Source: Mustelus asterias
Lineage: Eukaryota
Direction of reading: 5' to 3'
NCBI RefSeq assembly: GCF_964213995.1
Contig: NC_135808.1
Coordinates: 57,226,001-57,290,000 of the forward strand
Length of the DNA: 64,000 nucleotides
Both the position numbers and the translations under genes were made by a program. Each line of letters begins with the position of its first letter. Positions within the stretch are counted from its first letter, which is position 1. Under the pieces are notes generated by a model. That model had not been told where the DNA came from. It searched no databases and was given only the letters and a program-made list of their open reading frames with translations. Positions 9,171 to 62,974 of this stretch are shown here, one piece after another.

Positions 9171-9402
9171 TAGATAAAGGCAAAATACTGCGGATGCTGG
9201 AACCTGAAACAAAAACAAAGTGCTGGACAAACTTGGTGGGTCTGACAGCATCTGTGGAGAGAGAGAATAGAGCCAACGTTTCGAGTCTGGATGACCCCTC
9301 GTCCGAACTCCGAAGGGTCATTCAGACTTGAAACGTTGGCTCTTTTCTCTCTCCACAGATGCTGTCAGATGTGCTGAGTTTCTCCAGCGTTTTCTGTTTT
9401 TG
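9171..9402. mobile_element. palindromic short element, family 2 (probably Penelope-derived), with degenerate hammerhead motif
   Basis: inverted arms around ~9308; perfect 14 bp TSD tgaccattgacctt (9157-9170, 9403-9416); minus strand C(G)GACGA-GGGGUC aucca GACUC-GAAA-CG-UU. Confidence 0.85.
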
Positions 9403-12400
9403 TGACCATTGACCTTGTTGCCTTTTGTGGGACTTGTTCAAATTGGCTGCTTTGTTTGCAAGCATTATAACTGTACTCCCCTGGGCTGTGAAGTGCTGTT
9501 GGATGTCCTGAGTTCACCACAGGTGCTGCTTGAAGTTCTTCCTTCCTTTCTTTCTGTAACAGGAATTCTTATTTTCTATTCAGCTGCACAAGGAAATCTG
9601 TACAATTCATTGCATTCTGAAATGCAATTGAAATAAGGCACAAATGTGTGCGACACCTGTCTGTTATTAACAATGGAATCCATGGCAAAATGGAACATTC
9701 AAAACTTTGCATTTATTGTTGCAAACTCAGTGAAGAAATGTGAGTGCCCATCCTCGAATGGTGCAAGAGGTTTCCCCAAGCTAACACCATTCTTCAGATT
9801 TTTTTTTCCTTAATGCACGAGTTCCTTCATAAAACCAAAACACTCGACAAGTTCAAACTTCTGAATTTACGCATTATACATGTTACTGCCACCTTCGTGT
9901 TGTCCTCCCCCTCCCACCACTGTCAAATGAACTGCTCCACTGGGCTGCTGATCCGTAACATCAAAAACTGAAGAGACTGCTTGTGAGGAACATGGCTGAG
10001 ATGGAGCGTGCTAGCTAAGGGAGATAACCACCTGGTAAATAGCTTAAAGAGGATCGATACTGGACAGGGAAATGCTCTCGATGCAAAAATCCTTTCCTTC
10101 GTTACCGTGCCAAGCTATAGCTGCTTCTTTTTCTCCCACTTGTGTTGAGAAACGCAGATTTGAATAAATTGTTCCCAATCTCTCCTCATCCTGAGATGCA
10201 CTCCGTTGTTACCAGCATGCAGATTTTAAAAAAATAGAATATCCGTGCATTCATTCTTTTCACTCCGCCTGCCAAAACCCTGAAGCGCCCAGTTCTAGTG
10301 GCACTGTGGGAGTGCCTACACTGCACAGATGGCAGCTGCTCAAAAAGAAGGCCCTACACTACCTTCTGACAGTTAGGCATAGGGAAAAAATGGTAGTCTT
10401 CTCTAACTTGAGAATGAATATTAAAAACAAACAGGAAGCTGCCATTCATTTGCCATTTTAGCGAAGGCTGAGCCCCATAAACAGTTCTGGTTAGAATTCT
10501 AACTAATCATGGCACCTGGGAATGAAATGGGAGGAATTCCTTGTTTAAGTTAGTGCAGGATCTCACTTCCACCCAGCCACTTTTGATGGAGACTTGAGGC
10601 AGTTGTCCAATTTGGCATTAAACCAGAACAGATAGAAAGTTTATTTTTAACACTGTGTACTTGGCATATTTACCAGAAACAAAGTACGGATACACTTTGA
10701 AAGTACTTCCTTGTGTAGTATCCAGCCCCCTAAAATAGGCTCCAATATTTTTCAAAAGCTTTTGGAAAGTTTTGAATGTTGCCTTTGCTAGTGAAGAGCT
10801 AATGTGCAATGTGACTCCAGCATTAACTCTTGGATTGTGCTTCTGACAACAATCTCTTCATCTTATGATGTTATAGGTCAGCAGCCCTGAGGAGCAGTTC
10901 ATTTGACAGGAGGGGAGCAGCATCAGTTTTGGCAATAAAATTTAAGGTAGATATTGAGGATTTTGAACATAAGTTTATGATTATCACATGACTGTCATTG
11001 CTGGGCATAATATCTTGGGTACTAATCTTGTTTTTTTGTGAATTAATTTTTTACAGCGAATTTTCATGATGTATTAACCAGACTCCTGTTCCATCAGGCA
11101 AAATGTCTTGATTGTCTATATCCAGTACATCCCTTAAGCCGGATGCACAAATAGATTTTCTGTGATGATGGAAGGGTTTATTATGCCTTTTGTGACACCT
11201 TATTGAATATTTCCTGCCTAATGGCTGGTAGAATAAATTCAAACCAAAATTACAGGATCCTGGACTTTCTAAGCAAAGGCATAGAGTACAAAAGCAATAA
11301 GGTTTAGCTGAACCTTTAGAAATCACTGGTCAGGTCTTAGCTGGAGCTTTGAGGCCCATTTTGGGCACCATCCTTCAGGGAGGGTGACAAAGCCTTGGAG
11401 AGGTGGCAGAGGAGATTTATCAGAATAGTACCAGGGAAGAGGGATTGGAAAAGCAGGTATTGTACTATTCAGAGTACAGCAGGTTAAGGGGAGGTCTGCT
11501 AGAAGTGTGAAAACGTTAGGAAAGGGGTTGACAACTGTCCTCACTGGAGGAGTTCACGCGTTTAAACAAAAGAACCAGAGGTGAGATGAGGAAAAATGAT
11601 TTTTACACAGTTATGATCTGGAATGCAAATGCCCAAAAGAGTGGTGGAAGTAGATTTGGTACAAACTGAAGAGGAAATGGAATACATTAATAAAAAGGAG
11701 TAATTTGCAATGAGTGAGACCTTAGTTGTTTCAAAGAACTGGCATAGGCATGATGGACCAAATAGCTTTTTTCTAGGCTTCTTCATTCCACAATATTTGT
11801 ACCTGACCCAATGGAGATATCTGTTGACATTGAAGAGATGTACTTTGTGGTCCTTTTAGGAGCTGAGGGCTGAATTTTCTTCGAGCGCTTTCTAAGAGGG
11901 CTGCTGATTTCAGGATTCTTGACCCTATTCCTGAGGTTTCTGATTTTTGGGAGTGCTTTTTAAGGGCGCAGGCTGGTTTGGGTAACGTGCCGGCACCCTG
12001 CACTCCTGGCCTGGCTGGCTCCATTATGGGAATAGGCATGTCCTGGTTCTCCACAATTCTCATGGAGTTGGGGCAACCTTTCAAAGAGTTTTGGTTCACA
12101 GCACCTCAGAGGTGTCGTGAACCACTGTCTGTATGAGAGAATCTTTTGAAAGGTAAGCTCAGAAGGTCCTCCTGATGTCTCCCATGCCAAGATATGACCT
12201 GCAACCACCCTCTATGGTTCCTCATGTCCCCATGTCAAATTGCAGCCCTTTTATGCCCATTCACCCACTATGTTCTGTATAGAAGCAGTGATCCCTTTAG
12301 TGATCGTTGGATGTGTTTGGGGAAAAATAAACTAAAAACATAAGTAGTCCCAAAGGTCCAGCTGTCATTTTTTCTATCAATGCCTCCGAGTCCTCGGTTC

Positions 12401-12641: not shown

Positions 12642-13128
12642 CATGATGTGGAGATGCTGGCGTCGGACTGGGGTGAACACAGTAAGAGTTTTAACAGCAC
12701 CAGGTTAAAGTCCAACAGGTTTATTTGGTAGCAAATACCATAAGCTTTCGGAGCGCTGCTCCTTCGTCAGATGGAGTGGAAATGTGCTCTCAAACAGTGC
12801 ACAGAGACACAAAATCAAGTTACAGGATACTGATTAGAATGCGAATCCCTACAGCCAGCCAGGTCTTAAAGATACAGACAATGTGGGTGGAGGGAGCATT
12901 AAGCACAGTTCAAAGAGATGTGTATTGTCTCCAGACAGGACAGCCTGCAAGTCCAGGAGGCAAGCTGTGGGGGTTACTGATAATGTGACATAAATCCAAC
13001 ATCCCGGTTTAGGCCGTCCTCATGTGTGCGGAACTTGGCTATCTGATAGCCAAACTGATAGCCAAGTTCCGCACACATGAGGACGGCCTAAACCGAGATG
13101 TTGGATTTATGTCACATTATCAGTAACC
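12642..13128 (-). mobile_element. Penelope-like element 3' fragment with short inverted arm
   Basis: same terminus as other family 1 copies (catgatgtggagatg...); endonuclease C-terminus; ~12975-13043 is inverted at ~13053-13128. Confidence 0.85.
12738..12774 (-). ncRNA. minimal hammerhead ribozyme motif (PLE family 1)
   Basis: minus strand CCAU-CUGACGA-A-GGAGC agc GCUCC-GAAA-GC-UU-AUGG. Confidence 0.75.
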
Positions 13129-14146
13129 CTCTGGGTGCTGCACTGGACCGTCAGCCTGTCCTCAAGATCCTAGAGTGGTATTCGGCCCTATATTCTTTTG
13201 ACCCAGAAGCAAGACTGTTGTCACCGAGCCACAGTTGACAGTTATAGATTATTTGATGTGCTATAGAACAGCAACATTTTTCCACGCAGCCGTCCAGTTG
13301 TTATGGGTCAATTGACAAGATGGTGGCAAAGTGACTAACAGATTTCTGAAAGGGAAATTGTGTTTGACCAATCTATTAGGAATTTTTTGACAATGTAGCT
13401 ACTGGGATGCAGGAGGCAGAACCAATACATATGATGTATATAGGTTTTCAAAAAGCATATTTTTGTCACAAAGTGATTAGAGTACAAGAGTAAAGGAATC
13501 TTCCTATAATTATACAGGGTATTGGTGAGTCCTGCCTGGAGTACTGAATGCAATTTTGGTTTCCCTATCTAAGAATGAAATTGTCAACTCCTGCTTCTAT
13601 TCCTTATGTTCTTAACAATATAGGAGGGGAAATAAACAGCGTTTCTATTTATTAACACCTCTTTCACAGCTCAGGACAGGTAATGAGGAATAGCTTGGAA
13701 AGCTCTTAACACCTCTCTGCTCAATCTTTTCATGATTCTCTGCTTTATCAATGTCACTATAGTCACTTTTACTTGGACTTTTCCTCTTTAGTTCCTTCCA
13801 AGCTCCATAAGCTTTGCTGCACTTCAATGAAGGCTCATTGTGCAATCTCCTAGTCCTGTTCATTGTTGCAGAATTTGTTGAATATTGAGGAACATTTTAA
13901 CTTCACCTGCCTATCCTTGCTCTCTATGGACAATTAAAACTGAAGCTTGCTATCAACTAACCACCACTTGATTTACCTCTTCTGCTCTATAACTCTTGTT
14001 AGACTTGGTAATATCCAGCATCATTGAATCACCACTCTGCTTAGATTCAGATCAAGAACAACGTTCTCTAATAGAGAATAGAAAGTTTATTCTGAAATGT
14101 TTTTGTTGCTCTCTGGTTATGATTACTCCCCTTTCTGCTAAAACAG

Positions 14147-15258: not shown

Positions 15259-15470
15259 AAATAAAAGCAAAATACGGCAGATGCTGCCAATCTGAAATAA
15301 AAGCAGAACATTTTGGAAAAGCTTAACAGACCTGGCAGCATCTGTGGAGAGAAAAACCGAGCTCGAGTTTCGAGTCCGTACAACTCTTCTCTTCAGAGCA
15401 AAACATTAACTCTGTTTCTCTCGCCGCAGATGCTGCCAGACCGGTTGAGTTTTTCCAGTGTTTTCTGTTT
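15259..15470. mobile_element. palindromic short element, family 2
   Basis: aaagcaaaatacggcagatgct...cagcatctgtggagaga / tctctcgccgcagatgctg inverted arms; minus strand CUGAAGA...GAGUU guacg GACUC GAAA. Confidence 0.75.
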
Positions 15471-16462
15471 TCTGATTCAGAGGCGTGAGACTTGAGGTCA
15501 CCGAAAACTTGCAGCAAGGCCTGTTCCCCTGTACTTGCTGACCTACACTATCTCCCAGTCAAGCAACGTCTTGATTTTAAAATTCTCATCCTTTGTTTCT
15601 GAATCCATCCATGACGGCACCCATTCCTATTTTTATAATCTCCTCTTGTCTCTCAACCCTCTGAGATATCTTGCCCTCCGTAAATTTTGGCCTTGTGCTC
15701 ATCCCTGATTTTAAATACTCCAGCAGTGTGACTGTCTTCAGTTGCCTAAATCCCAAGCGCTGCTCCACCTCTTCACCTGGTTTTCCTCCTCAAAACCTAC
15801 ATCTTTGCCCAGGCTTTTGGGCATCTGCCCTAGTATCTCCTCAGGTGGCTCAGTGTGATACTTTGTTTTATAACGCTCCTGTGAAGCACCTCGAGACATT
15901 TATTACATTAAAGGTGCTATTTATGTCGTTGAAAGAAAATTGTCATCTGGTGGAAAAGGGCTGGTTGGGGTGAGAGGGGGGTGCAAGTTTCCAGCTGAAG
16001 TGGGTTGTATCTATTGAGGTGGTTATTCAGTTGAGCGATGCAATTTGAATTGGCAGGCTGTGCATGCTGTATGGCTGTCATTTTTTTTTTTGCTTGAGCA
16101 ATATGGCCAGGTTATAGAGTCTGAGAAGGTCTGAGTGATGGCTCTCCTTAGAAGGGGGATTAAAGCGTGTTAATTTTGCCAATCAATGTATAGTGCAATT
16201 GTCGGGGCCTACATGCATAACTCCATTTTCTCCCTCTGAATGAACTGTCGGTGGATGGATCATTCCAAAAATTATTTTACGGGGATGTGGCAAGGCTAGC
16301 ATTTGTTGCCCATTCCTAATTATCCTAGTTAGGCCATTGCAGAGAGTCAACCACATCACTGTGGATCTGGAGTCACATATAGACCAGGTAAAGGCAGCAG
16401 ATTTCCTGCCCTTAAGGATATTAGTGAACCAGCTGGGTATTTCTGACAAACGATGATGATTT

Positions 16463-21035: not shown

Positions 21036-21430
21036 TAAAAGTTTTAATCAATGCCCCCTGTAAATCCATGGCATTACATTGGCCCAATTCTCTAACTGTC
21101 CATTTCGACGCTGCTCTGAAAAAGTATTCAATTTGTGAAACACATCTTGCTCTGGCCAGCTTCATAGCCTGGCCATTTATGTTCATGGGGCACCGGGACA
21201 CAGATGGTGGCTTGGCATGTGGTCAAGCAGTCAGTGTGTGTCCTGAATAGGATGACCTTAATTATAAGCAGACTTTGCCAAGCCCTGGAGCAAACTCTCC
21301 TCAAAGACTTCTGGTCTGTTCACCTTGTACATCTGCAGTTAAACAAGATTGGGGAAATGTAACCAAAACTTCTAAGAGCATCTTCCTTGGGAAAGTGAGA
21401 AGGGGACTGTAACCTATGGACTGTACTAGT

Positions 21431-21602
21431 TAAAAGCAAATTACTGCGGATGTTGAAATCTGAAACAAAAACAGAAAATGCTGGAAAATCTCAGCAGGTC
21501 TGACAGCATCTGTGGAGAGAGAACAGAGTTCAGACTCCGTGCTAGTTCTGTGCTCTCCCCATAGATGCTTTCAGTCATGCTGAGATTTTCCAGCATTTTC
21601 TG
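21431..21602. mobile_element. palindromic short element, family 2, centre deleted
   Basis: same arms as the 9171 copy; imperfect flanking duplication actgta(ct/ta)agtt. Confidence 0.75.
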
Positions 21603-27353: not shown

Positions 27354-29090
27354 AATATGTTTGTATGTAGATGTGTGTGTTGTTGCCATTGGAATTTTTA
27401 ACTCAATTTTTAACCCAGCAGCAAGCTCTTGTGTGTTTAAATATGAGGAAGGTTGTTTTACTTCTTACATGCTTGCCACGGACGTTACAAAAAACCCAGT
27501 CACTCTTGCATATCACCACATGAACACACAATTAGATACAGATGAAGATAAAACCGGTATTTATAAAAGTGAAATTTATCTCTGCCTCTCTTTTGTCACA
27601 GGCCTGATTGACGTTTCTTAGTTGAGTTGATGCTTTAGCTGGTGTGAAGGTCTTGGTAAGCAGAGATTTCTCAGTAGCTGCGAAGGTTCCGATAGTTGGT
27701 CTCGGGTGAACTTGAAGTTGGAACAGAATTTCCGAGAATCCTACTTTCCTTTCCCAACATTGCTGTTGGGTACCTTGGCTGCTTAGTTGACTGCACAGGT
27801 CTGATGGCTTTTGTTGGTGTTTCATGCCATTGATAGAGTTTTGTTGGAAGTCTGCTGTTATGTTTTAAAAGGAAGGAACAAGGTCTTAATTGTGACCTTG
27901 TATCAAGCGCCATGTTATTGTCCGAATAAGGTGGTGTGTCAATTTGATAAGCATTCTAGCTGTTGCTTTTCACAGCTGTGGTTTCAGGCAGCCAATGGCC
28001 TTAGTGCTTGAAGGGCAGACCATCATATTACAATGAGGTGTTTTGTTTGCCTTTTTGGAGATGGGAACTTTTGTTTTGCTGTGAGTTGTCATATTCCAGA
28101 ATGCACTGTCATTTTTAAAATGCTCCCTGGTCTTGATCCTTCATCTCTCTGTAACCTCTTTCTGAGCCTTTTATAAGTCAGGCCCAGGACTGGGCCTACT
28201 GAACTGTAGTCACAGGCAGGGACTAGTGTGTATATAGTAGTGTGTATACAGAGTTGTGGTTTTACTTTATATTCTGTAATCACTATTTTTCTTTCCAGTC
28301 GGGCTACCTGAGTCATTACAGGCTCCTTAAAACCTATGTTTTTGACTAAATGTTTTTGTTTAGCTGTCTCAATATCTCGCTATGTGGTTTATTGTCAAAT
28401 ATTGTTTGTTAATACTCTGTGAAGCATCTTGGAATGTTTTGCAGTGTCAAGGGTACCAAATAAATGCTGGTTGTTGAAAGGCTGATAGAAACAAATTAAA
28501 TAGTGGCTTTCTACAGGGAATTGGATATACCCTTGAAGGGGGAAATTTGAGGGCTATGGGAGAAGATCCAGAGCGAGATTAACATGGAGGTCCAAGGTTG
28601 CCAACAATGTCTTGGAGTATGGTCCCTGAAGATAGAGAGAGATGGGGAAGAGTGGATCAGAGGAGCTAATTGGACAGCTCTAACAGAGTATAATGGGCTA
28701 AGTGGTCACCTCTTGTGCAGTCAGAGTCTATGATTTCTATAAACTCCAAGTGATCACTGTTCCTCATTATTTCATTCTGAATGTGGTCACTCCTTGTCAT
28801 CTCACTCTATCAGTGGTCACTCCTCCTCACTGGCTCAGTTGGTAGCTGCTGTGACCCTTGTTGATTTGCATAGTGGGGACAGGAATGAACTTGCCTTGTC
28901 CTTTTGGCCTGATAGTCTTCTAGACTGTCATTGGACAGATGACCACTTGAGTGAGCTTGAGATGCTGGATTATTGCCAACATCCAGAAAAACGAAGCCCA
29001 GAAAAAGCTGCATCTTTGAGAGAGGAAAACCTTGGATGGAGTGTGGGCGGGTCAGAGAAAAGCTAGTTGATCTCTGGGTATATGCACAGC

Positions 29091-29152
29091 CATGATATGG
29101 AGATACCGGCGTTGGATTGGGGTAAGCACAGTAAGAAGTCTCAAAACACCAA
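29091..29152 (-). mobile_element. Penelope family 1 extreme 3' end fragment
   Basis: catgatatggagataccggcgttggattggggtaagcacagtaagaagtctc matches the 52953 terminus. Confidence 0.75.
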
Positions 29153-30448: not shown

Positions 30449-30657
30449 CACAGTAAGAAGTCTCACACCAGGTTAAAGTCCAACAGGTTTAATTTGCAGC
30501 ACAAGCTTTCAGAATGTCACTCCTTCTTCAGATGACTCACCTGAAGAAGGAGTGACACTCCGAAAGCTTGTGCTGCCAGATAAATCTGTTGGACTTTAAC
30601 CGGGTGTTGCGAGACTTCTTACTGTGCTTACCCGAGTCCAACGCCGGCATCTCCACA
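30449..30657 (+). mobile_element. palindromic Penelope-derived short element (family 1)
   Basis: inverted arms around ~30533; TSD ttttagatt(c/a)at at 30437-30448 and 30658-30669. Confidence 0.85.
30538..30572 (+). ncRNA. minimal hammerhead ribozyme motif (PLE family 1 variant)
   Basis: CAC-CUGAAGA-A-GGAGU gac ACUCC-GAAA-GC-UU-GUG. Confidence 0.75.
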
Positions 30658-31070
30658 TTTTAGATTAATGCCACAGCTCTGGACTGCAGCAGCTTGTATT
30701 TATATCACACGCTCCATGTTCTGTGGGTATTTAAAGTGCCTCACAGCTAATCAATTGCGTCTGAAGTGTAATCGGTGTTGAAATGTGGCAGCCAGATTTT
30801 ACTACTTGTGGGAGCTTGCTGTGCATCAAGCTAATCACTAGATGATCTGTTTCAGTGATGCTGATTTGAGGGATACATTTTTGCCTGAAAACCTTTCAGA
30901 AGTCAGAGACCCTCACCTTAATAGTGCCATGGGGTTTTCCCTGCCCACCTCAGAGGCGAGATGGAAAATCAGTCTGAAAGGCAGCAGCCCTGTGACCCCT
31001 GCGCACAGCAAGTCATTCCTCCCCCCCCTCCCCCCCCCCACCCGCCCACACCCACCTGCCCCCCCCCCCC

Positions 31071-31857
31071 CCCCGTGCGGCGGGTCGTTGCCCCCCCCCC
31101 CCCCGTGCGGCGGGTCGTTGCCCCCCCCCCCCCCGTGCGGCGGGTCGTTGCCCCTCGCCCCCGTGCGGCGGGTCGTTGCCCCTCGCCCCCGTGCGGCGGG
31201 TCGTTGCCCCTCGCCCCCGTGCGGCGGGTCGTTGCCCCTCGCCCCCGTGCGGCGGGTCGTTGCCCCTCGCCCCCGTGCGGCGGGTCGTTGCCCCTCGCCC
31301 CCGTGCGGCGGGTCGTTGCCCCTCGCCCCCGTGCGGCGGGTCGTTGCCCCTCGCCCCCGTGCGGCGGGTCGTTGCCCCTCGCCCCCGTGCGGCGGGTCGT
31401 TGCCCCTCGCCCCCGTGCGGCGGGTCGTTGCCCCTCGCCCCCGTGCGGCGGGTCGTTGCCCCTCGCCCCCGTGCGGCGGGTCGTTGCCCCTCGCCCCCGT
31501 GCGGCGGGTCGTTGCCCCTCGCCCCCGTGCGGCGGGTCGTTGCCCCTCGCCCCCGTGCGGCGGGTCGTTGCCCCTCGCCCCCGTGCGGCGGGTCGTTGCC
31601 CCTCGCCCCCGTGCGGCGGGCCGTTGCCCCTCGCCCCCCGTGCGGCGGGCCGTTGCCCCTCGCCCCCCCGTGCGGCGGGCCGTTGCCCCTCGCCCCCCCG
31701 TGCGGCGGGTCATTGCCCCTCGCCCCCCCGTGCGGCGGGTCATTGCCCCTCGCCCCCCCGTGCGGCGGGTCATTGCCCCTCGGCCCCCGTGCGGCGGGTC
31801 ATTGCCCCTCGGCCCCCGTGCGGCGGGTCATTGCCCCTCGCCCCCGTGCGGCGGGTC
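31071..31857. repeat. GC/CpG-rich minisatellite, 28 bp unit, roughly 27-28 copies
   Basis: unit ccccgtgcggcgggtcgttgcccctcgc; ORF periodicity of 28 aa equals 3 units. Confidence 0.97.
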
Positions 31858-32560
31858 AGCACACACCCCCTCCCCTAGCAGCAAAGCATTCCCCCAGTAC
31901 TCTATTGACCTGTCAACTTTAGCTTCCTTCTGAATTTTGGATGAGACAGGTGGGGAGGGGATATTGGGAACGAAATTCCACTGAATCCCTGCTTTTGTGC
32001 AAGTTGGTAAGAATGTGGAACCCGCTCCCACGCGGAGTAGTCGAGACACCTTTTAAAGCGAAGCTGGATGAACACGAGGGAGGAAGGAATAAAAGGTTAT
32101 GTTGATCAGGCAAGAGGAAATGAGGTGGGAGGAAGCTCGTGTGAAACATAAACATCATCACAGAGCAATTTGTCTGATTGGTCTGTTTCTGTGCTGTTAA
32201 TTCTCAGTAATGTAGTTGCGTGGATACTGTGATCTGGGGTGAGCCAAGTTCTGAACAGCTTTTTTGATTTTAGCCCATGTTCGGTCTGAATCGGAGGGAG
32301 ACAGACGGTGGGTGGGGAGTTACAGCAGCTGCTCAAATGGTCAGAGCCAGCAGGTGGCAGCACTGCAGACTGAACTGTGTCGCCCTCCTGTTTATGTTAC
32401 ACAGCCAGATCGCAACTGCACAGAATCCACAACAGATGTGACCTGGCATGAAACAGAAAAAGATTACTTGTGATTTACCTCCGCTAACTGTGTCCATGAT
32501 GGCCAGTGAGCCTCGGATCAGCTGGTCCCTTTCCCTGCTTTGATTAATTTCCTATTTATT

Positions 32561-40880: not shown

Positions 40881-43029
40881 GTGCATCAAACTTGTTTATC
40901 TTTATTTGTGCCAGTCATTCATCTATTATACATTCTTTGCGCATTTAGATATGGCACCTCTAATATAATGTTTTTCTAAAGTTCTTTTTATCATTTGTCC
41001 ATGAGTTGTGGACATTGGTGGTAAGACCAGCATTTATTGCCTTGAGAAGTATTGCCGTTGTTAAAATCTGTGCCTTCTTGATGTCATCTGGTTGATTTAA
41101 CCCAGATTACTGCTTTGCTCTACTGCTTTGATTTTTCTCTCGAGCTTTAAGAGTTTACCCTTACCTCACCCTTCCCCTCCCTTACTGTTTAAAGCCTTAC
41201 TACTATCCTAGTTATTTAGTTTGCCAGTGCACTGGTCTTGGAGTGGTGTATGTGCAGTTTGTCCCTCTTTCCCCAGTACTGGTGCCAATGCTTGCCACTT
41301 CATTTTTTTTCAGCAATGTATTTAAACCTCTAACCTGTTTGTGCCTCTGCCAATTTTTGCACAGCTCGGGTAGTTATCCACAAATTATCTTTTTGAAGTT
41401 CTGCTCTTTACTTTGTACCTAAGCTTCTAAAACCACCTCGGCAAAACCTCAATCCTTGTTCTAACTTTGCCATTGCTTCCCATGTGGAAGCAACTGGATC
41501 CTCCTCCTCGATTGTCACCAGCATGAGGTGACATCCTTAATCCTGACAAAAGGCAATCAGCATGGCCTTCAGGACTCTGGGTGACTGCGGAGAACAGCAC
41601 CCAGCTACCCAACTATACTGTTCCTAACATTGCCGGACCCCATTTCACTCCCCCACTGCAATGGCCTCATTAACACCATTCACAACTATCTTGTCAGTCA
41701 ACAGCAAAGGCTGAGTCTCCTCTGCCACCACATCTGTGGTTCCTTTCCCTGTCTGAGTCACAGCCACGTCCTCCTGCTCCTGACTGCTAATCATGACCTG
41801 ATCTAAGGAGTCTGACTGCCTCCTGGATCAAAATGCCCAGATAGCGCTTTCCCTCCCGGATGCACTTTAATGTATTTTTATGTTTGTGGGATGAGAGTGC
41901 TGCTGGCTTGGTCAACATTTATTGCGCATTCCTAATTTCCCTCGAAGATGGTGGTGAGCTTCCTTCCTGAACCACTGCAGTCAGTGTAGTGTAGGAACAC
42001 CCACAGTGTTATCCTCAATAACTCTGAGCTGAAGTTTCTTAAGTTGCAGACTCTTTACTGCTTGGGATCGCACTACTCTCAACCAACTCCAAAGTTTCAG
42101 ACGCAGCCCAACTCCTCCACTGCCATCTCTAGCTAACCTGTTTTATATATTTAATTAACTATATAGTTTTATGTATTTAATTCACTTGGTTTGTTTTAGT
42201 TCCTTTATACTAATTACTTTAACCAGTTTAAATTCCTAACTGTAGTTTCCTAGTTTTAAACACTGACTGCCTTGAGCTTACAAAAACCACAATGGCCTCA
42301 TTAACACAATGTTAAAGGTAAAAGGAGCACCTCCTGCCCCCTCTGCTCTGAACCCTGTGTGGCTGCATAATTAATTACACTGTGTGCATGTTTCAAATTG
42401 ATGAACTGTGGGTGAGATTAGAGATCAGGAGGAGCATTATAGTGCGAAATGGGAATGGTTGTATTTGGGCTGTGGAAGGAGCCCATGGGACCCTATTGCA
42501 ACCCAGACTTGCGTGTATTCTTGGGCGTATGTGTGAGGACAGCAATATGATCAGTAGACAGGAAGGGAGGTACAGGGAGGGGAATTCCAGAGCTGGGGCC
42601 TAGACAACAACATTGCTATTCCAATGGTTAAAATTATAATTTGGAATGCCCAAGAAACAGGAATTCGAGAGGGTTGTGGAGTTGGAGGAGATTACAGAGA
42701 TAGGGAGGGACAAGGTCATGGCGAGTTTAGAAAGGGGTGAGAATTTTAAAATCAAGGCTGATAAATGTTTGGAGTAGTGGAGATAAACGTATTGGATTAA
42801 CTCCAGATAATGCTGAATTCCTTGACGCAAGAGTTGAGGGCTTGGACTGGTGAACATTGATGGGCCGAATGGCAATTTCTTGCATTTGAATTTTAGGAAC
42901 AGCAGGAAGGCCATTCAGTCCCTCGAGCTCATTCTGCCATTCAATTAGTTCATGGCTGATTTGCACCACAGCTCTCACAATCTCCTTTCCCAGTGTTGCT
43001 CTTTTTTTTTCTCTCTGGATGTTATGCAG

Positions 43030-43243
43030 GTGGGAGACCAGCAGGTGGAGTGAGTGTTCCCGGACCTGTGGGGAAGGATATCAATTCAGGACGGTGCGGT
43101 GCTGGAAAATGATCGCCCCTGGTTTCGACAGCTCTGTTTATGATGAACTGTGTGAAGCGGCCGAGCTGACCAGACCTGTGGAGCGAAAACTCTGCAAAAA
43201 CAAAGGGTGCGGTCCACAGTGGGAAGTGTCAGAATGGTCGGAG
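43030..43243 (+). CDS. ADAMTSL2: ADAMTSL2-like exon H: TSR
   Basis: poly-pyrimidine tract, atgcag|G...GAG|gtaatc; [71 protein letters not shown]. Confidence 0.96.
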
Positions 43244-44458
43244 GTAATCCATTTTTGTTTCGGTGAGAAATATCCCCACCAGAGGACATTAAGGGATTTG
43301 TTGTCTTCTGCTCCCTAATTGTAATAAAAGTGAGGTATTTATCCAGTCCATAGAACATAGAACACTTAATATTTCAAACACACCATATAAGTACATGCTT
43401 TTCTCTACTGCTCTGTTAAAGTTAGTGAACAAAGGAACTAATAGCTCTTGGGAATATTAAAGAGTCTTTTGGTCATACAGAACTTCTGAGTGTCGCTGAA
43501 AAAAGACACATCAAAGCTTTTTGTCAGGACATTCACAAGAATGCCTGTTGTAAAGGGAAATTTATACTTCATGAGAAGAGAATGCTGGGGGGTGCTGGCA
43601 AATCGAGTCTGATTGGTTTGCCATGAAAAATGCACTGGTTAACTGATGACCGTTGACCGCCAAGCCGTGTTTAAATTCAAACCAGGCAGCTCTGGCCAAA
43701 GGGAATGAACCAGAGAATTGTTCTTCCCTTGACAGATGCCATTCTTGTGAATGTCCTGATGAGTGCAAAATGAAAATGTGTTTTTTCAGTGATACTCAAA
43801 AATATTAAATGTTAATTCTTGAACATGGGCATCACCACCAAAACTGACATTTTCCATCATTTATGACGATATATATTTAATGGCGTAGTTCTAAAGAGGG
43901 ACAGAGGGACCTGACCTCGGGGGGGTTTGCGTGCATAGGTCTTTAAAGTTTATTTATTAGTCACAAGTAGATTTACATTTACTGTGAAAATCCCCTAGTC
44001 GCCACACTCCGGCGCCTGTTTGGTTTACAACAGGTTGACCCAAACGTGACCCTGTCGTGGGGATCCCTCCGGGGAATAGCCCCCAGGGGAGAGGGCCATG
44101 GCCAGGCAGTGCCCTGGCACAGACCCAGACACAGGTTGGCACTGTGGCAGAGCCAACCATTGCCAGGGCGACCTGTAGGAAGACTCGTGTGCGGGGACTC
44201 ATTTATTTGTGGTGGTTTGGGCTCCAATGTCGGCGATGACAGTTTGGGTGGGGAGAAGAGGCCAGATGTTGGCGACGACTGTTTGTGGGGTAGGGGTACT
44301 TGAGATCTCTTGGGGGGGGGGGGGGAGGTTATTTTTTAGTCTGGTTCGGGTGCTGGTGTGTTGGGCCTTGCCGCTCAACATGACAGCGTGAAACACACCC
44401 CTTGTTTTTTTGACAAAGTGCCATACGATCTGGCGAGAAAACCTGCCTGTTCCGCTAA

Positions 44459-47149: not shown

Positions 47150-49935
47150 TCACCTGTAACCCACACACGGTCTCCAAGTTCCATCTGACTTGGGCACCAG
47201 GACGATAGGACTCCAGTCACTAGAACTTAATTCAGTGAGATCATTTTGGAGCATGTACTCCATTTCCTTTTATACTTGCAATAACTTAGCTGGACCTAAC
47301 CTATATGGATGTTGTTTGATTGGAACGGTGTCCCCCACATCTGCGCCATGCGCCACTAGCTCCATTTTACCTAGTTTATCCCTGCATATACATTTATAGG
47401 TCTGCAGTAATTCTGTCAGTTTGCTCTGGCTTTTATCTGAGGGATGATGTATCCACTGGTTTAAATTTCCCAGTACTTCCTCATTGCCCAAATGAATTTT
47501 AGGGCAGTCACTATTACAATTTTCTCCCTGGTCTTCCCCCTACTTTGTGACTATCAAGGCCTCATGCTTGTTCTCATGTACACAGTCACATTTGGGAATG
47601 CTTTTGAGTTCTAGTGCTGGGTCCGCAGTCTAATAGGGTTGTTTTAATCTTGAGCCACCCTGCTGTAATTCAACTAAGGTCTTGAAATCGAAGCCATCAT
47701 TCTCACTCTCTACATCTGTCTCATTCTCAGTTAACCTGCTAAAGATGGTATCAGATAACCTGATCCCCTTTGCCTCGCCCTGGGCTCGCAACTCCTCCCT
47801 CTTTTGTCTTAGCTGCTGAACCTGTGATCACGTCACTACACCATCTTAAAAAAACCCAGGATGGTCTGTTTGTAATTATTCTGTGGCTGGATTTTCTACC
47901 AGCTGCTCGACCACAGTAGGCATCATGACGATCTGTCATCCTGCTATATCATTCCCTAGAATGAATTGAATGCCTGCAATGGGTAGGGTTTCAACCATGC
48001 CTATCACTACTTCTCCCGTCTCCAAGCTACTCTCTAAGCTTACTTTTATTAAAGGGATTTCTTTTGTTTCTCCTTGAATTCTGTGAATTAACTAACACCT
48101 TCTCCAGCAACATCCCTTCTGGGCAACAAATATCTCTATCCCACAACATTGGAGATCGACTCGCATCAATATCTCATTACATTTTAAGAAGTCTCACAAC
48201 ACCGGGTTAAAGTCCAACAGGTTTATTTGGAATCACAAGCTTTCGGAGCACTGCTCCTTCATTAGCAGCGTTCCGAAAGCTCGTGATTCAAAATAGACTT
48301 GTTGGACTTTAATCGGGTGTTGTGAGACTTCTTACTGTGCCCACTCCAGTCCAACGCCATCATCTCCACATCATTATATTTTACCATTCCAAACTGCCCA
48401 CATGGAAATATTTACCTTTACACACACAATCTTTGAGTATATCTGCCACCTGCTGGTCATTCTGCCCCTGTGCAAGTGGTGCGCACATTTTCATCCCCTT
48501 TGTCGCGTGTGTACCAATCCAACTGGCTTCTTTGGTTCCCCAGCTTTTAACTTTCCTTTGTCCTGTATATGATTGATAATCCCGACTGGATGACCATTTA
48601 GTGTCCAGCATAATGATTTGGTGTGGCTCAGTTTGTTTGAATGAAAACACCTGGCTTTTATCTCTCACTCCTCCAACAGACTCGGGTTTATTTTGAGGGG
48701 GATTCTCCTTGGAGCTTCCTATCACTCCCTCTCTTGCTAGCCTGCCCCGCCTCGCACCTTCCAAGTTTCTAGTTTCCTCTGATCGAAAGATGGGTCTAAA
48801 GAAAAGCTTTGGTCTGGGAACCAACTCCTAATTGTTCGCAAGCTCTGCAGCTTGTCTGGCCGTTCTAACATTTTGTTCTCGACGTGCGTTCTAATCATGG
48901 CAGGCAGCGAATCTTTAAACTCTGCCAGCAAAATGATCTCTCTAAGTGCTCCATAGCTTTCAGCTATCACATCCATTTATCAAACTGACTTTGTTTGACC
49001 CTTTCAAATTCAAGGTACGTTTACCCAATCTGTTTTCTTATAGCTCTAAACTGTAAGCCTTTGATACCAGCTCATAAGCACACATTAAAGTGTTCTTCAC
49101 TGCCTCAGTCTCCAGACCTTTCCTCAGTCAGAGACACATATACCTCACTAGCCCTACCTACAAATTTAGCTATCGAAAGAGCTACCTCACTAGCCCTACC
49201 TACAAATTTAGCCTGTGTGGTCAGGGTCCAAATGTCTTGTGGCAATCACATCGGCCTAGCTATTTTCTCAAAACACACAAAGTCTTGATTTCTTTTGCAT
49301 TGAATTTTGGGAGAGCTTGTACATATCTGAACATTTCCCCACAGGCTTCCTGCCTTGAACCACTTTCTTCCTCATTCAGCTCTGTACCTGCTGCCATTTG
49401 TCGCAGTTTAATTTCATGCTCCCTCTCTTTCTCCCTCCCTTCCATTACAAATCTCTCTTTGGCTCTTTCCTCTCTTTCCATCTCTTCTCTTTCCCTCTCT
49501 TTCCTTTTTTCTCTCTCTCTCTTTCCTGCATCACTGACTTAATTGATATGCCTCTTTCTACTTGAAGCTTAGCTAGTTCGATTTCTTCCCTTCTCGAAAT
49601 ATTGGGTCTGGCTAACCCCTCTTGTATATTTAAATGGGTTGCTAGACTTTCAAATATCTCCGCTTTCTAAGCTAGTGTAAATGAAGCCGTTTCCAATTTA
49701 TTTGCCAATTCCATCAATTTAATTTTTGGCACACTTTTTAAACTTGCTACGGTTACATTATCTACTTCCAGCTAAGATCGAACTACCTCCAAAGCCATTT
49801 TGCAACCCTGTTATTTTAAATAACACATTCTCACTTGTTTACACATGGTCATTACTCTCATTCGGTGCAAAGTCAAAAATCCCCTACATCTAAGGAATTT
49901 AAGCTTTTTAGTATCCCAGACTCGAGCCCCTAATT
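47150..49935 (-). mobile_element. decayed Gypsy/Ty3 LTR retrotransposon internal region (Gmr1-like, SCAN-type gag)
   Basis: coiled-coil gag EREKEREHEIKL...LPKFN; SCAN-like LREIILLAEFKDSLP..IRTHV; pol-like H..DVGD..PIKQHPYR; tRNA-Pro-like PBS at 49913-49932. Confidence 0.75.
48187..48370 (+). mobile_element. palindromic Penelope-derived short element (family 1) with deleted centre, nested in the Gypsy remnant
   Basis: inverted arms; TSD tcatta(c/t)atttta at 48174-48186 and 48371-48383. Confidence 0.85.
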
Positions 49936-50750
49936 TTCTGGGGCGATACCCCTCTGATGTTAACTGCAAAGGTATCCCAACTTGGAAATACTGGTTCATG
50001 GTGGTGTATAGTTTTGTCTACAGGAATGGTGGAAGGAGCCATGTGCAAGACCCAGTGAGAACAGTAACAAGCCCAGTCCTAGTATAACGCTGATTTAAAA
50101 ACTATTTATTACAATAAAGAAAAGACACATTTACACAAACAGGACTATAATGATCTAAGACAGTTGCGTAGAAGAAACTACTAAACTCACCCACAAAGTT
50201 GAGTAGAAATTGCCCTTTTTGTTTCAAAATATGTTTACAAGATCTGAACTCTTTCAGGACTTCTCTCTCCTCAAACAACATCCAATTCAATAGATCTAGA
50301 AGTAAAGGCCAGCTTATAATTACCTCACTGTATACAATTGAATAGTTATTCTGGGAAGAATCTTTTGGTTCAGCAAAGACATGGTTTTAACTGCCTTCAC
50401 AAAGATTTCTGCTTCTGGTCTGCTGGGTTATAGGCTCTCGGGGTGCTAGATGGATCCTGCCTCTCGGGGTGCTAGATCAAATCTGCCTCCTGCTTCCATG
50501 AAAAGGTCACCAATAATACCATTGTTTTGCTTTGAAGATTCTCCCTATTTGCTTCTTCAGCTTCTGTTAGTTCTAAAAGATTAACATGTAAGCCTTCCCT
50601 GGATGGTGCAATCGTATACCCCAAAGTTTTTCCTATTAGCAGAATGATAGATTCTTCTGTTCTGTTTCCAGCTGCTAATCTTGTTGCACACACCCACACT
50701 GATACAGTCAGGGCCGCACACCCCACACTGACAAAACATGAAAACCCAAG

Positions 50751-51288
50751 CCACACTGACATTAACACTCGGGGACACGTACCCCACACTGAGATTAACA
50801 CTCGGGGACATGTACCCCACACTGAGATTAACACTCGGGGACACGTACCCCACACTGAGATTAACACTCGGGGACACGTACCCCACACTGAGATTAACAC
50901 TCGGGGACACATACCCCACACTGAGATTAACACTCGGGGACACATACCCCACACTGAGATTAACACTCGGGGACACGTACCCCACACTGACATTAACACT
51001 CGGGGACACGTACCCCACACTGACATTAACACTCGGGGACACGTACCCCACACTGAGATTAACACTCGGGGACACGTACCCCACACTGACATTAACACTC
51101 GGGGACACGTACCCCACACTGACATTAACACTCGGGGACACGTACCCCACACTGACATTAACACTCGGGGACACGTACCCCACACCGAGATGAATGCTCA
51201 GGGACACGTACCCCACACCGAGATTAACACTCGGGGACACGTACCCCACACTGAGATGAATGCTCAGGGACACGTACCCCACACTGAC
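50751..51288. repeat. minisatellite, 33 bp unit, about 16 copies
   Basis: unit cacactga(g/c)attaacactcggggacacgtaccc (HTEINTRGHVP). Confidence 0.97.
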
Positions 51289-51521
51289 GTTTACATTGCT
51301 ATGCTCTCGCCTCACTCTGTAGTCTCCGGCACTACTGCCCCTCCTGACTCTAAAGAAAGAAGGCACCAGGAGTTCTTGTGTGAGTTTGATTCTAGCCGTG
51401 AACTGACTTGTCTCCATGGTGTGGTTTTTTGTATCGCGTTAGCCTAATGCGCTGTATGTTTTGGTGTTTTGTAGCAGATATTTCAGAATTCACTTTTTTT
51501 CAGATGGACTAGCAGTGTTTG

Positions 51522-51874
51522 CTCGAGTTGGCACACTAACCTTAGTATCTCGAGTTGGCACACTAGCCTTAGTATCTCGAGTTGGCACACTAACCTTAGT
51601 ATCTCGAGTTGGCACACTAACCTTAGTATCTCGAGTTGGCACACTAACCTTAGTATCTCGAGTTGGCACACTAACCTTAGTATCTCGAGTTGGCACACTA
51701 ATCTTAGTATCTCGAGTTGGCACACTAATCTTAGTATCTCGAGTTGGCACACTAATCTTAGTATCTCGAGTTGGCACACTAATCTTAGTATCTCGAGTTG
51801 GCACACTAATCTTAGTATCTCGAGTTGGCACACTAATCTTAGTATCTCGAGTTGGCACACTAACCGTAGTATCT
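51522..51874. repeat. minisatellite, 27 bp unit, 13 copies
   Basis: unit ctcgagttggcacactaa(c/t)cttagtat (SRVGTLTLV). Confidence 0.97.
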
Positions 51875-52955
51875 TGGGAAATATACCTTGTTATAGACAA
51901 TCTGCTTCCCTTACTGCCCCCCAGCACAGTGGAAGATCTGCTGCTTGGGTGGCTGTATTATGCCTTTAGGTAATCTGGTTTTTGAGTTGATTAAGTATTG
52001 CCTGGCAACCTACTCCTGGAGAATGTCTTTAAATGAAAAAAGCAATGTTCTGTAATTAATGGAAATTTAATATGGAGGAGTCATGCTTTCTGCCTAAATG
52101 AACTAGGACCAAATCCATTGTTTTTGGCTTGTGTTAAAAACCCCATCCCCTCCCAGATACTTTCCCGGGATAACCCAGGCAACTTGACTGCAACCTGTTC
52201 AAACTGGTTTCTGACCCCATTCCACCTCCACCACAAAGATCACTCACCATCACTAACTCCACTCACCTCTATCACCCCTAACTCAGCTTAACTGCTGTTG
52301 CCTTTGTCACTTCCAAACTCAATTACTCCAAGTCTCCCCTGGCTGACCTCCCATCCTCCACTGGCCAACAACTTCTGACCATCGGAAATTCTGCTGTCCA
52401 TCCCTTCCTATAACAAGTCCTGCACTCCATCCAGACTGCTTCATCCTCTTCTAATCTTGCACCTTCAGTGCCTCAAATTACCAATGCTCATCCCTCCATG
52501 TTGAAATGGTTTCCCTCTTCCCTCTCTGTCTCTGCGACTTTCTCCAGCTCCATAATTCCTTCTTTTCATTAACTGCAGCCTCTTGTACTTTCCCCCAACT
52601 CTTCCTTCACTCCATTTTTGGTCCACTTTGGTTTTTGTCCCATGCCTTGCCTCTTCACCTCCCTCTTCTCCTTATAACCCTATTTTTTGACCAAGCTTTT
52701 GCTCATCCCTCCCAATATCTCCGTCTTTAGCTCAGAGTCCAATATTTTTACAGGTGAAGTGCTTTGTGACATTTTCTCTGTAATATATGTTCACTCAATA
52801 TTCATTCTTGGCATATGGCTGTCACAGGTAAGGCAGGCATTTATTACCCATCATGAATTGCCCCCGAGAAGCTGGTAGGCCTTAAAGCCCTGCAGCCCAT
52901 GGATCAAGGCGTTCCCACTGTGCTGTTTGAATGGGAGGTCTGGATTTTGTCCCAT

Positions 52956-53181
52956 GATGTGGAGATGCCGGCGTTGGACTGGGGTGAACACAGTAAGAAG
53001 TCTCACAACACCAGGTTAAAGTCCCAACAGGTTTATTTGGTAGCAAATACCATAAGCTTTCGGAGCGCCGCTCCTTCGTCAGATTCCACTCCATCTGACG
53101 AAGGAGCAGCGCTCCGAAAGCTTATGGTATTTGCTACCAAATAAACCTGTTGGACTTTAACCTGGTGTTGTGAGACTTCTT
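52956..53181 (-). mobile_element. palindromic Penelope-derived short element (family 1)
   Basis: near-perfect ~90 bp inverted arms around ~53085; perfect 12 bp TSD attttgtcccat at 52944-52955 and 53182-53193. Confidence 0.9.
53091..53127 (+). ncRNA. minimal hammerhead ribozyme motif (PLE family 1)
   Basis: CCAU-CUGACGA-A-GGAGC agc GCUCC-GAAA-GC-UU-AUGG; a mirror core with truncated stem I lies on the minus strand at ~53050-53084. Confidence 0.78.
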
Positions 53182-53682
53182 ATTTTGTCCCATTAACCAT
53201 GGAAGAGTGGTGATATTTTTCCAAGTCAGGGGTTGGGTTGCCAACTTGTAACGAAATGTAATCTTGGGTTAGTCCCATGACTTGCCTCCATGCTTCAGCC
53301 ATTTGTCAGCCAGTCCTTCAATCCTTGTGACGTACTATCTTCCTCTGCCAACCCTAGCCCACTTTCCACAGTTTTATATCTATTAAAGAGCAATGTTTAA
53401 AGAAAATGACCAAGAAGCATTCATTTTTAGTGCCCTGATGATTTTTCTTCATGATTGCATGCGGCAGTGTCCTTTGATTCCTGGAGACACCAGGCTAATC
53501 CTGGATGGTTGGTGATCCTGGTCGCCCTGGGTGAGACCTGGAAGCCATGAGGCATCCAAAAGCCCGCTGTGCGGTCCTTCAAACTGCCGGAGGTTTTAAA
53601 TTTGGGTGATGTTGCGTGAGTTGTTGATGGTGAGCTACTATGATTGATTTATAAGCTGTGTTTTTCCCCTTTCTCATTAAAG

Positions 53683-57177: not shown

Positions 57178-57763
57178 AGTGAGTTTCAACTGCCTCTGTA
57201 TTCCCAAACTGAACCGTCTGCTTAATCCCCCCACAGCCTATCTCTATGGCAATGTGATATACTTTGGTTGTTCCAAACAGAAATGTAAATTAACCTTTTT
57301 TAACCTTCAAAAGAATCTCAGATTTTGGAAGCCCCTTAACTAATTTAAATATCTAATAGAGTTTAAGGCCCTCTTCTCCAGACTGTCGGGACCCACCAAA
57401 AATCTACCTCGTTTACAACATGCTTTTAGCAGCTTTTCACCTCGGAACTACACTTAATCTAAATCTTTTTATTGAGGTAGTTGTAGACCTCCTGGCTCTC
57501 TCTCAAGCTTCGAGATCGCTCATCCATTATTTAGATTTTCCCACTACCGCCACTGAAAACACAAGTTGCCTTTTAACAGTAATTAACCCAGGCTTGTTTG
57601 ATTTCCATTTGCATTAGAAGTGTTCACCCGTTTCTCGATCAGGTTTTTCCATTTAACTTGTATTTAACAATTTTATATTTAACAATTCAATCCCCAACTT
57701 AAAAGTTATATTCCTAAAACTAATGTTGTGGCTCTAAATCATGGAATCAGATATCCGCACCAC

Positions 57764-57992
57764 TTTAGATAAAGGCAAATTACTGCGGATGCGGTGCTGG
57801 AATCGGAAACAAAAATTGAAAAATGCTGGAAAATCCCAGCAGGTCTGACAGCATCTGTGGAGAGAGAATAGATCCAATGTTTTGAGTCTGGATGAATCTT
57901 CGGAAGGTTCATCCTGACTCAAACGTTGGCACTATTCTCTCTCCACAGATGCTGTCAGACCAGCTGAGATTTTCCAGCATTTTCGGTTTTTG
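57764..57992. mobile_element. palindromic short element, family 2
   Basis: tttagataaaggcaaattactgcggatgc...; inverted arms around ~57901. Confidence 0.8.
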
Positions 57993-58424
57993 ATCCACAA
58001 CTCTTAGTTTTCTTGACACTGGTTTTCCTCCTCCCCATTCTACTGTCTATGGCCCAGTGGAACTAGGTGGTGCCAGAAAACATCAATGCATGAAGCTCCT
58101 CTCCCATTCTCAACTCCATTTATCGTATTAAGCCAATAGGCAGGTATAAAAAGCAAGTAGAATGTTTTCTTTATCTCCTACAGCTGGAGTATAAAGGTCA
58201 GGAAGTTAGTTTTCAATTGCATAAAGCCTTGCATTCGGTCCAGATACCATACCTCAGGTTTTAATGGTCTTGGAGGGGGTGCAGCACAGATTCATCAGAT
58301 TGAGCCCAGATTTTACAGGGTTCAGTCACGAGGACAGGTTGGAAAGAGGAGGCTTTTATTCCTTTGCGTATATAAAATTCAGGGGTGATCTGATTGAGTC
58401 ATTCCAGAATGATTGAAGATTTGT

Positions 58425-60470: not shown

Positions 60471-62952
60471 ATAGAACATAGAACAGTACAGCACAGAACA
60501 GGCCCTTTGGCCCACGATGTTGTGCCGAGCTTTATCTGAAACCAAGATCAAGTTATCCCACTCCCTATCATCCTGGTGTGCTCCATGTGCCTATCCAATA
60601 ACCGCTTAAATGTTCCTAAAGTGTCTGACTCCACTATCACTGCAGGCAGTCCATTCCACACCCCAACCACTCCCTGCGTAAAGAACCTACCTCTGATATC
60701 CTTCCTATATCTCCCACCACGAACCCTATAGTTATGCCCCCTTGTAATAGCTCCATCCACCCGAGGAAATAGTCTTTGAACGTTCACTCTATCTATCCCC
60801 TTCATCATTTTATAAACCTCAATTAAGTCTCCCCATAGCCTCCTCCGCTCCAGAGAGAACAGCCCTAGCTCCCTCAACCTTTCCTCATAAGACCTACCCT
60901 CCAAACCAGGCAGCATCCTGGTAAATCTCCTCTGCACTCTTTCCAGCGCTTCCACATCCTTCTTATAGTGAGGTGACCAGAACTGCACACAATATTCCAA
61001 ATGTGGTCTCACCAAGGTCCTGTACAGTTGCAGCATAACCCCATGGCTCTTAAACTCCAACCCCCTGTTAATAAAAGCTAACACACTATAGGCTTTCTTC
61101 ACAGCTCTATCCACTTGAGTGGCAACCTTTAGAGATCTGTGGATATAGACCCCAAGATCTCTCTGTTCCTCCACAGTCTTCAGAACCCTACCTTTGACCC
61201 TGGAATCCACATTTAAATTAGTCCTACCAAAATGAATCACCTCTCATTTATCAGGGTTAAACTCCATTTGCCATTTTTCAGCCCAGCTTTGCATCCTATC
61301 TATGTCTCTTTGCAGCCTACAACAGCCCTCCACCTCATTCACTACTCCACCAATCTTGGTGTCATCAGCAAATTTACTGATCCACCCTTCAGCCCCCCCC
61401 TCTAAGTCATTAATAAAAATCACAAAGAGCAGAAGACCAAGCACTGATCCCTGTGGCACTCCGCTAGCAACCTGCCTCCAGTCTGAAAATTTTCCATCCA
61501 CCACCACCCTCTGTCTTCGATCAGATAGCCAGTTACCTATCCAATCGGCCAACTTTCCCTCTATCCCACACCTCCTTACTTTCATCATAAGCCGACCATG
61601 GGGGACCTTATCAAACGCCTTACTAAAATCCATGTATATGACATCAACTGCCCTACCTTCATCAACACACTTAGTTACCTCCTCAAAAAATTCTATCAAA
61701 TTTGTGAGGCACGACTTGCCCTTCACGAGTCCGTGCTGACTATCCCAGATTAATCCGCATCTTTCTAAATGGTCGTAAATCCCATCCCTAAGTACCTTTT
61801 CCATCAATTTACCAACCACCGAAGTAAGACTAACCGGTCTATAATTACCAGGGTCATTTCTATTCCCTTTCTTAAACAGAGGAACAACATTCGCCACTCT
61901 CCAGTCCTCTGGCACCATCCCCGTGGACAGTGAGGACCCAAAGATCAAAGCCAAAGGCTCTGCAATCTCATCCCTTGCCTCCCAAAGAATCCTAGGATAT
62001 ATTTCATCAGGACCAGGGGACTTATCGACCTTCAGTTTATTCAAAACTGCCAGGACATCCTCCCTCCGAACATCTATTTCCTCCAGCCTATTAGCCTGTA
62101 ACACTTCTCTTCCTCAAAAACATGGCCCCTCTCCTTGGTGAACATTGAAGAAAAGTATTCATTCATCACCTCGCCGATCTCTACTGACTCCATACACAAG
62201 TTCCCACTACTGTCCTTGACCGGCCCTAACCTCACCCTGGTCATTCTTTTATTCCTCACATAAGAGTAAAAAGCCTTGGGGTTTTCCTTGATCCGACCCG
62301 CCAAGGACTTCTCATGTCCCCTCCTAGCTCTCCTAAGCCCCTTTTTCAGCTCATTCCTTGCTAACTTGTAACCCTCAATCGAGCCATCTGAACCTTGTTT
62401 CCTCATCCCTACATAAGCTTCCCTCTTCCTTTTCACAAGACATTCCACCTCTTTCGTGAACCATGGTTCCCTCACTCAGCCATTTCCTCCCTGCCTGACA
62501 GGGACATACCTATCAAGGACACCCAGTATTTGTTCCTTGAAAAAGTTCCACTTTTCATTAGTCCCTTTCCCTGACAGTTTCTGTTCCCATCTTATGCCCC
62601 CTAATTCTTGCCTAATCGCATCATAATTACCTCTCCCCCAATTGTAAACCTTGCCCTGCCGCCCGGCCCTATCCCTCTCCATTGCAATAACAAAAGACAC
62701 CGAATTGTGGTCACTATCTCCAAAGTGCTCTCCCACAACCAAATCTAACACTTGGCCCGGTTCATTTCCCAGTACCAAATCCAATGTGGCCTCACCTCTT
62801 GTCGGCCTATCCACATGTTGTGTCAGGAAACCCTCCTGCACACACTGCACAAAAACTGCCCCATCCGAACTATTTGACCTACAAAGGTTCCAATCAATAT
62901 TTGGAAAGTTAAAGTCCCCCATGACAACTACCCTGTGACCCCCACACATATC
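60471..62952 (-). mobile_element. CR1 LINE, 5'-truncated 2.5 kb copy: APE endonuclease C-terminus, RT and 3' UTR
   Basis: MGDFN...LDLVL...SDH (APE); NYRPVSLTS, DFSKAFD, GVPQGSVLG, KFADD (RT); two in-frame stops (62476, 61244) and one frameshift (~62100); (ttctatg)n tail. Confidence 0.96.
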
Positions 62953-62974
62953 AATAATAGAAAAAATGGATTAT

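Follow-up and report, generated by a model that had tools for sequence, protein, structure and literature searches.

The window (the whole 64-kb stretch of DNA that was analysed) contains a short palindromic insert with several relatives, exons of a host gene and unrelated repeats, Table 1. The host gene is ADAMTS-like, with plus-strand exons encoding spacer 1 and TSP1 domains. A simple motif scan found no further exons of this type beyond 43.3 kb, and four of the Penelope-like element (PLE) pieces may sit within or near its introns. A second palindrome family has no BLAST relation to the focal one and probably represents short insertions of another PLE family. A broken LINE-type element, presumably CR1-like, lies on the minus strand, and three tandem arrays give rise to long spurious ORFs.

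Table 1. Positions of the focal element, its relatives and other features, numbered from the first letter of the window
Feature	Position	Strand	Remarks
Left target-site duplication (TSD)	52944-52955		12 bp, ATTTTGTCCCAT, identical to 53182-53193
Unpaired PLE tail	52956-52993	-	~38 nt; parental counterpart ends at the ORF start codon; tail as defined in the available parts of PMC8557442, PMC3846280 and PMC11167929
Tail-bearing arm	52994-53084	-	Hammerhead core at 53082 running leftwards, stem I of 2 bp
Loop, head-to-head junction	53085-53092		8 nt; AT microhomology; simple, recurrent junction type
Complete minimal type I hammerhead motif	53091-53127	+	Predicted cut after 53123; features as in the available part of PMC4209133
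Tail-less arm	53093-53181	+	Ends at the inner start site, ~38 nt before the tail end
Right TSD	53182-53193		ATTTTGTCCCAT, identical to left TSD
Older sister copy	30449-30657	+	Both cores; 12-bp TSD with one mismatch
Older sister copy	48186-48370	+	12-bp TSD with one mismatch; CUGANGA core on neither strand
Long continuum member, ~1.6 kb	1-1550	+	Begins ~67 bp before the first letter of the window; arms inverted, with endonuclease coding at 822-1253; ends as in the other members; TSD of 12 bp
Intermediate member	12642-13129	-	~400-bp tail arm and 76-bp inverted piece; reveals what precedes the focal core in the parent
Tail-only fragment of the same element	29090-29151	-	
ADAMTS-like exons	5657-6133, 42890-43318	+	Spacer 1 and TSP1 domains
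Second palindrome family	9209-9403, 15261-15481, 21427-21602, 57763-57997		Four copies, ~190-230 bp
Broken LINE-type element	60548-62970	-	RT (RVT_1) and upstream endonuclease-like frame
Tandem repeats	30900-31900, 50693-51295, 51522-51874		GC-rich array (first); 33/66-bp and 27/54-bp units

The focal insert (52956-53181, 226 bp) is a palindrome enclosed by an identical pair of TSDs, and contigs of run X19, possibly the assembly's own sample, cross both of its junctions without other letters. The initial annotation described it as two inverted copies of a Penelope 3' terminus bounded by a perfect 12-bp TSD. Length, palindrome and TSD are as described, but the last ~38 nt are present on one arm only, which rules out two complete copies of the terminus. 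In the fold prediction the arms form the single ~90-bp hairpin that had been anticipated, interrupted by one bulge and a single mismatched position and closed by a loop of 8 nt. The opposite-strand cores also lie as annotated, complete on the plus strand and truncated in stem I on the minus strand. Reading along the plus strand, the motif comprises stem I CCAU (53091-94), CUGACGA (53095-101), an extra A, a 5-bp stem II, GAAA-GC-U-U and AUGG (53124-27). Both proposed sister copies have TSDs of their own, but only the one at 30449 carries the two cores.

To trace the source of these arms, the 3.68-Gb genome was searched at the protein level with the endonuclease-like frame of the window; 150 of the 89,843 candidates were scored. 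Several of the scored candidates sit in intact open frames of 912 codons (892 aa from the Met). The 892-aa ORF matches RVT_1 (E = 7.6e-8), and a DKG motif was seen by direct reading. A GIY-YIG-like VVY..C...C..YIG with downstream H residues was recognized by eye, Pfam and PDB giving no domain match, and is preceded by a CX4CxxC linker (C-HSNL-CKTC) of the CX2-5CxxC type that defines Neptune/Nematis. Judged by the definitions in the available part of PMC8557442, rather than by an RT tree, the predicted parent is an autonomous Neptune/Nematis-type PLE. Its tail terminates at the ATG of the ORF, and the arms of the short elements match the ends of long copies at 83-96%. Each of the six long copies that were fetched (L061-L066) carries a partial tandem of the pLTR, an inverted 5' copy, or both. 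The long copy at the left edge of the window shares the two ends and has a 12-bp TSD of its own. In one full-length copy (L063, 5730-6507) the inverted arm and the pLTR start at one point, which lies a whole unit upstream of the 3' copy. With positions 2650-5800 of another long copy (L064) as probe, runs from nine organisms and fish metagenomes shared 17-83% of the sampled words; the parental family is therefore not confined to this genome.

Of 288 anchored arms, 218 retain the hammerhead core, and the others include arms that are cut short. Among the 218, the extra A is present in 217 and the GC in 214. The stems covary across subfamilies: stem I is CCAU/AUGG in some sequences and CAC/GUG in others, and stem II comprises 5-7 bp in several. 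The motif is conserved and has every element of a minimal type I hammerhead: CUGANGA and GAAA, the additional base, a palindromic 15.2-16.2 and stems that covary. The ribozyme assignment rests on motif and covariation because an Rfam search of the window (E ≤ 1) gave no hammerhead match. Retaining the hammerhead fold within the palindrome is predicted to cost 56 (plus strand) or 53 (minus strand) kcal/mol relative to the hairpin. The description as a 'double hammerhead' misleads: the two cores are on opposite strands, a transcript carries just one of them, and every palindrome transcript places its core after the core's own complement in the order of transcription. A PLE ribozyme is dispensable for insertion in vitro according to the available part of PMC11167929. 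Conservation and covariation across subfamilies reflect the parent, and the hammerhead is probably a passenger from the parental pLTR that would be silenced by the hairpin once it lies in a palindrome.

Back-to-back cores are abundant genome-wide, with 6,844 places at a spacing of 0-30 nt and 2,787 at 31-61 nt, compared with 1 and 0 for the reversed-pattern controls. Of 82 fetched copies, 75 have a direct repeat of at least 10 nt at their two ends; when flanks were mismatched, 2 of 82 pairs did. The pairing of cores is therefore not a chance arrangement. Counting exact matches to one 13-nt anchor per arm at gaps of 0-154 nt gave a total of 29,654, distributed as 4,780 (0-30 nt), 5,229 (31-61 nt), 9,276 (62-92 nt), 7,797 (93-123 nt) and 2,572 (124-154 nt). 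The first two bins (10,009 matches) are too short to hold two cores, and the broad peak falls where arms stop just 5' of the ribozyme core. The ribozyme cut site was rejected as the template's 5' end, its bin holding 4,780 matches and not the peak of 9,276; one fixed stop at 13 nt upstream of the core was also rejected, as arms frequently extend further. Within 400 kb sampled at eight arbitrarily chosen places there were 20 hit groups. Eleven were head-to-head pairs; seven of these were short and the others reached up to 627 nt per arm. Scaling from this sample suggests, as a rough inference, on the order of 100,000 head-to-head pairs genome-wide. The mini-element is the short end of a continuum of insertions, each an inverted arm plus an arm with tail, that reaches full-length elements.

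The fetched loci (123, some fetched twice) were top BLAST matches and the first places of the pattern lists and are hence a non-random sample. Within it the tail is one-sided in 119 of 123 loci, two-sided in one and not found in three. The copies end at two fixed points, which ~38 nt separate in the parent, and have TSDs that differ at every locus, with a length of 10-14 bp in 69 of 78 loci and a mode of 12-13 bp. All 52 two-core loci have different centres when orientation is taken into account; in two pairs the same junction occurs flipped. Net inserted bases are found at 32 of these junctions, and overlap or blunt joining at the other 20. The tail-less arm is the longer in 24 of the 52 loci, the tail arm in 23, and in five the arms are equal. 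Short junctions of the focal copy's class recur at 129 places on three subfamily backgrounds, and the commonest form of this class occurs in the two orientations at a ratio of 5:5 (30 loci examined). Both arms could be scored in 82 of 110 unique loci; 11 were ambiguous, and the 71 that fell into three well separated subfamily classes were concordant between their arms without exception.

These observations lead us to regard the focal element as probably an abortive two-ended insertion of the autonomous Neptune/Nematis-type PLE. According to the available part of PMC11167929, the protein of another PLE cuts and extends both target strands, and two internal RT start sites bound the tail; the two ends of the focal element map to two such sites. 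In the pathway that we propose, the endonuclease would nick the two strands ~12 bp apart, and one 3' end would prime at the tail end and the other at the inner site, on RNA of the same source. Both cDNAs would stop early, mostly 0-15 nt past the hammerhead core, and host end joining would fuse them by microhomology or small templated patches into a head-to-head palindrome with one tail. Joining the 3' ends of cDNAs that had grown from opposite nicks would yield just such a palindrome, and its junctions would be symmetric. Some centres may later pass among neighbouring copies, most simply by ectopic gene conversion. The varied centres, the even split of arm lengths (24:23:5) and the concordance of arms (71/71) fit two-ended priming with end joining and not a master MITE.

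The point at which the cDNAs stop may be the 5' end of the RNA or the ribozyme fold. Of 65 long parental arms, 45 have a TATA-like box ~35 nt before the core, and in the commoner parental type an initiator-like motif also occurs, ~6 nt before the core; the focal subfamily has no clear box. Arm ends peak 6 nt upstream of the core (16 of 79 arms), a position that we take to be initiator-like from the initiator consensus, and 41 of 52 arms extend past it. Run-off at a 5' end is consequently only suggestive. A copied-cap signature was discarded: a C follows the stop in nine of 11 non-parental cases, but several can be derived from the other arm and three come from one clan.

Not every centre looks freshly assembled. 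A complex 23-nt junction motif has five matches genome-wide, four of them in a 1.2-Mb stretch of contig C1 and the fifth on C10. All five copies have their own flanks and terminal direct repeats (four by script, that of L228 by eye), and the centre lies before the tail in three and after it in two. The C1 lists had already shown three of the five; of the other two, one lies inside the cluster. A second complex junction has exactly two matches, 1.47 Mb apart, each with a perfect, separate TSD. Complex junctions common to copies at unrelated sites count against pure de novo assembly. Three further pairs look alike when compared pairwise: L069/L070 (1.8 kb apart, flipped), L130/L135 (0.6 Mb, flipped) and L215/L216 (20 kb). 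In L069 (C1:460766) and L070 (C1:462551) the inner 110 bp are identical and the outer part has three differences, with tails on opposite sides and different TSDs. The apparent twins L213/L214, and L013/L030, were set aside as segmental duplicates. The proximity of the sharing copies points to ectopic conversion or templated repair. Finished palindromes might themselves act as local donors, through neighbour-supplied centres or local re-copying of hairpins, spreading in flip-flop fashion within a megabase with a new TSD each time; we regard this as a minority possibility. The junction of the focal copy is simple and recurrent and shows no sign of such shared descent.

Shared junctions also speak for a self-propagating non-autonomous family, in which whole palindromes would be transcribed and re-inserted in trans, two-site priming passing on the centre in either orientation and evening the arms. 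The five copies with the 23-nt junction, in both orientations and with their own flanks and terminal repeats, and the two copies of the second junction are what such a family would produce. The sharing is, however, small and local (4/5 within 1.2 Mb; 2/2 within 1.5 Mb), unlike dispersed retrotransposition, the 52 oriented centres all differ apart from the two flipped pairs, and the subfamily marks of short copies follow those of long copies, so we consider this explanation unlikely. The initial annotation's view of a non-coding, MITE-looking element mobilized by PLE machinery is partly supported. Origin from a PLE end and insertion by the PLE route are supported, given the variable 10-14 bp TSD and the PLE tail. 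For most copies a self-standing family is not supported, in view of the varied junctions, the length continuum and the occurrence of one short junction in three subfamilies and both orientations; a minority share complex junctions and may reflect some re-copying. The fixed length and common internal structure expected by descent in a MITE- or SINE-like family copied from masters were not seen, given the same continuum and varied junctions, junction sharing being confined to small local clans.

Alternatively, a single strand could fold back, the cDNA or an antisense template snapping back and copying itself (self-priming, available part of PMC3846280) while the endonuclease trims the second end. 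The arms of one copy differ from each other by 2.9%, against 8.6% from the arms of other copies, and some centres are perfect palindromes, both of which fold-back would explain. It would also account for correlated arm lengths: 16 of 29 endonuclease-bearing loci have an adjacent inverted arm, and none of these arms is shorter than 387 nt. This correlation implies that the two cDNAs are not independent, with one counter-example (L066). The largest subfamily class (42 loci) contains 24 mirrored variants, where shuffling gave a mean of 6.8 and none of 1,000 shuffles reached 24; mirrored variants accord with the two-ended insertion, and fold-back or arm-to-arm conversion would fit them as well. 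Fold-back from a tail-primed cDNA predicts a longer tail arm, but among unequal pairs the tail-less arm exceeds the tail arm in 24 of 47 short ones and nine of 14 long ones. In addition, the arms differ at several linked sites in six of 11 hand-picked copies, an effect that conversion could likewise produce. On balance fold-back seems rather improbable. The six copies (L201, L202, L203, L204, L205 and L131) look as if their arms came from two sources, and four have TSDs. A clear one-sided A>G excess between arms, as expected of A-to-I editing, was not found.

Palindromes are fragile, and long inverted insertions might lose their centres by breakage and repair until ~200 bp remain, with neighbour-templated repair creating shared centres. 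Such erosion would explain the correlated arm lengths, the templated patches, the local sharing and the contrast between inner and outer parts of L069/L070. However, varied short junctions are already seen in copies whose arms are 100% identical and whose TSDs are perfect, and the remaining junction-sharing pairs have no inner-versus-outer contrast, which makes this route very unlikely. A DNA-transposon MITE with long terminal inverted repeats, although suggested by the short, non-coding, palindromic form and high copy number, is refuted for practical purposes by a TSD that is long and variable instead of short and fixed (the check proposed at the outset), by the asymmetric ends and by derivation from an RT-coding element.

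Tens of thousands of minimal insertions form a natural data set that can discriminate two-ended priming from fold-back, and an RNA template of ~130 nt is amenable to the existing in vitro assay. Local junction sharing offers a way to measure ectopic exchange among palindromes, or their local re-copying; if finished palindromes do act as donors, a retroelement derivative would be spreading over short distances in flip-flop fashion. The mini-elements will be misannotated as MITEs or microRNA hairpins (the best Rfam matches on sister copies were microRNA models, below threshold), and they may be a large source of double-stranded RNA.

L1 twin-priming likewise uses two primers from one staggered cut and microhomology joining, but inverts a different, upstream part; here the same stretch is copied twice, giving an inverted duplication. 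A literature search, with most subscription papers outside it, found no description of the focal family or of shared junctions. Non-LTR retrozymes (available parts of PMC7229834 and bioRxiv 10.64898/2026.07.22.740005) are also non-coding, hammerhead-bearing and related to PLE pLTRs, but they are head-to-tail tandems with cores on one strand; identity with them was rejected, as the focal family is head-to-head with one core per strand. The minimal PLE hammerheads in the available part of PMC4209133 share the extra base between 9 and 10.1, G10.1-C11.1, the short helix I and palindromic 15.2-16.2. The same source (2014) mentions dual motifs on opposite strands in Schistosoma, 100-700 bp apart, whereas here ~10-30 nt separate the cores, U or A predominates at H17 and the ribozyme is a prediction from sequence. 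Poseidon of the green anole, studied in vitro (PMC11167929), shares the two RT start sites bounding the tail, the cutting and extension of both strands and a hammerhead near the ORF start, but belongs to another clade, and its tail ends inside the ORF rather than at the start codon; no treatment of short palindromes was found in the available part of that paper. The layout of inverted arm and one-sided tail is already published for PLEs, and its formation is called unresolved in the available part of PMC8557442. As described in the available parts of PMC3846280, PMC8557442 and PMC2377424, canonical EN+ PLE insertions have an inverted pLTR, a one-sided tail of 30-40 bp and a TSD of about 10 bp. 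The pLTR partial tandem and the inverted copy occur among L061-L066 and the one-sided tail in the short loci, and full-length copies have the same layout. The focal family therefore resembles these insertions in its head-to-head inverted arm, one-sided tail, TSD and 5' truncation, and differs in that the ORF-less extreme is the commonest form, with tens of thousands of copies, a peak just 5' of the core and a TSD mode of 12-13 bp.
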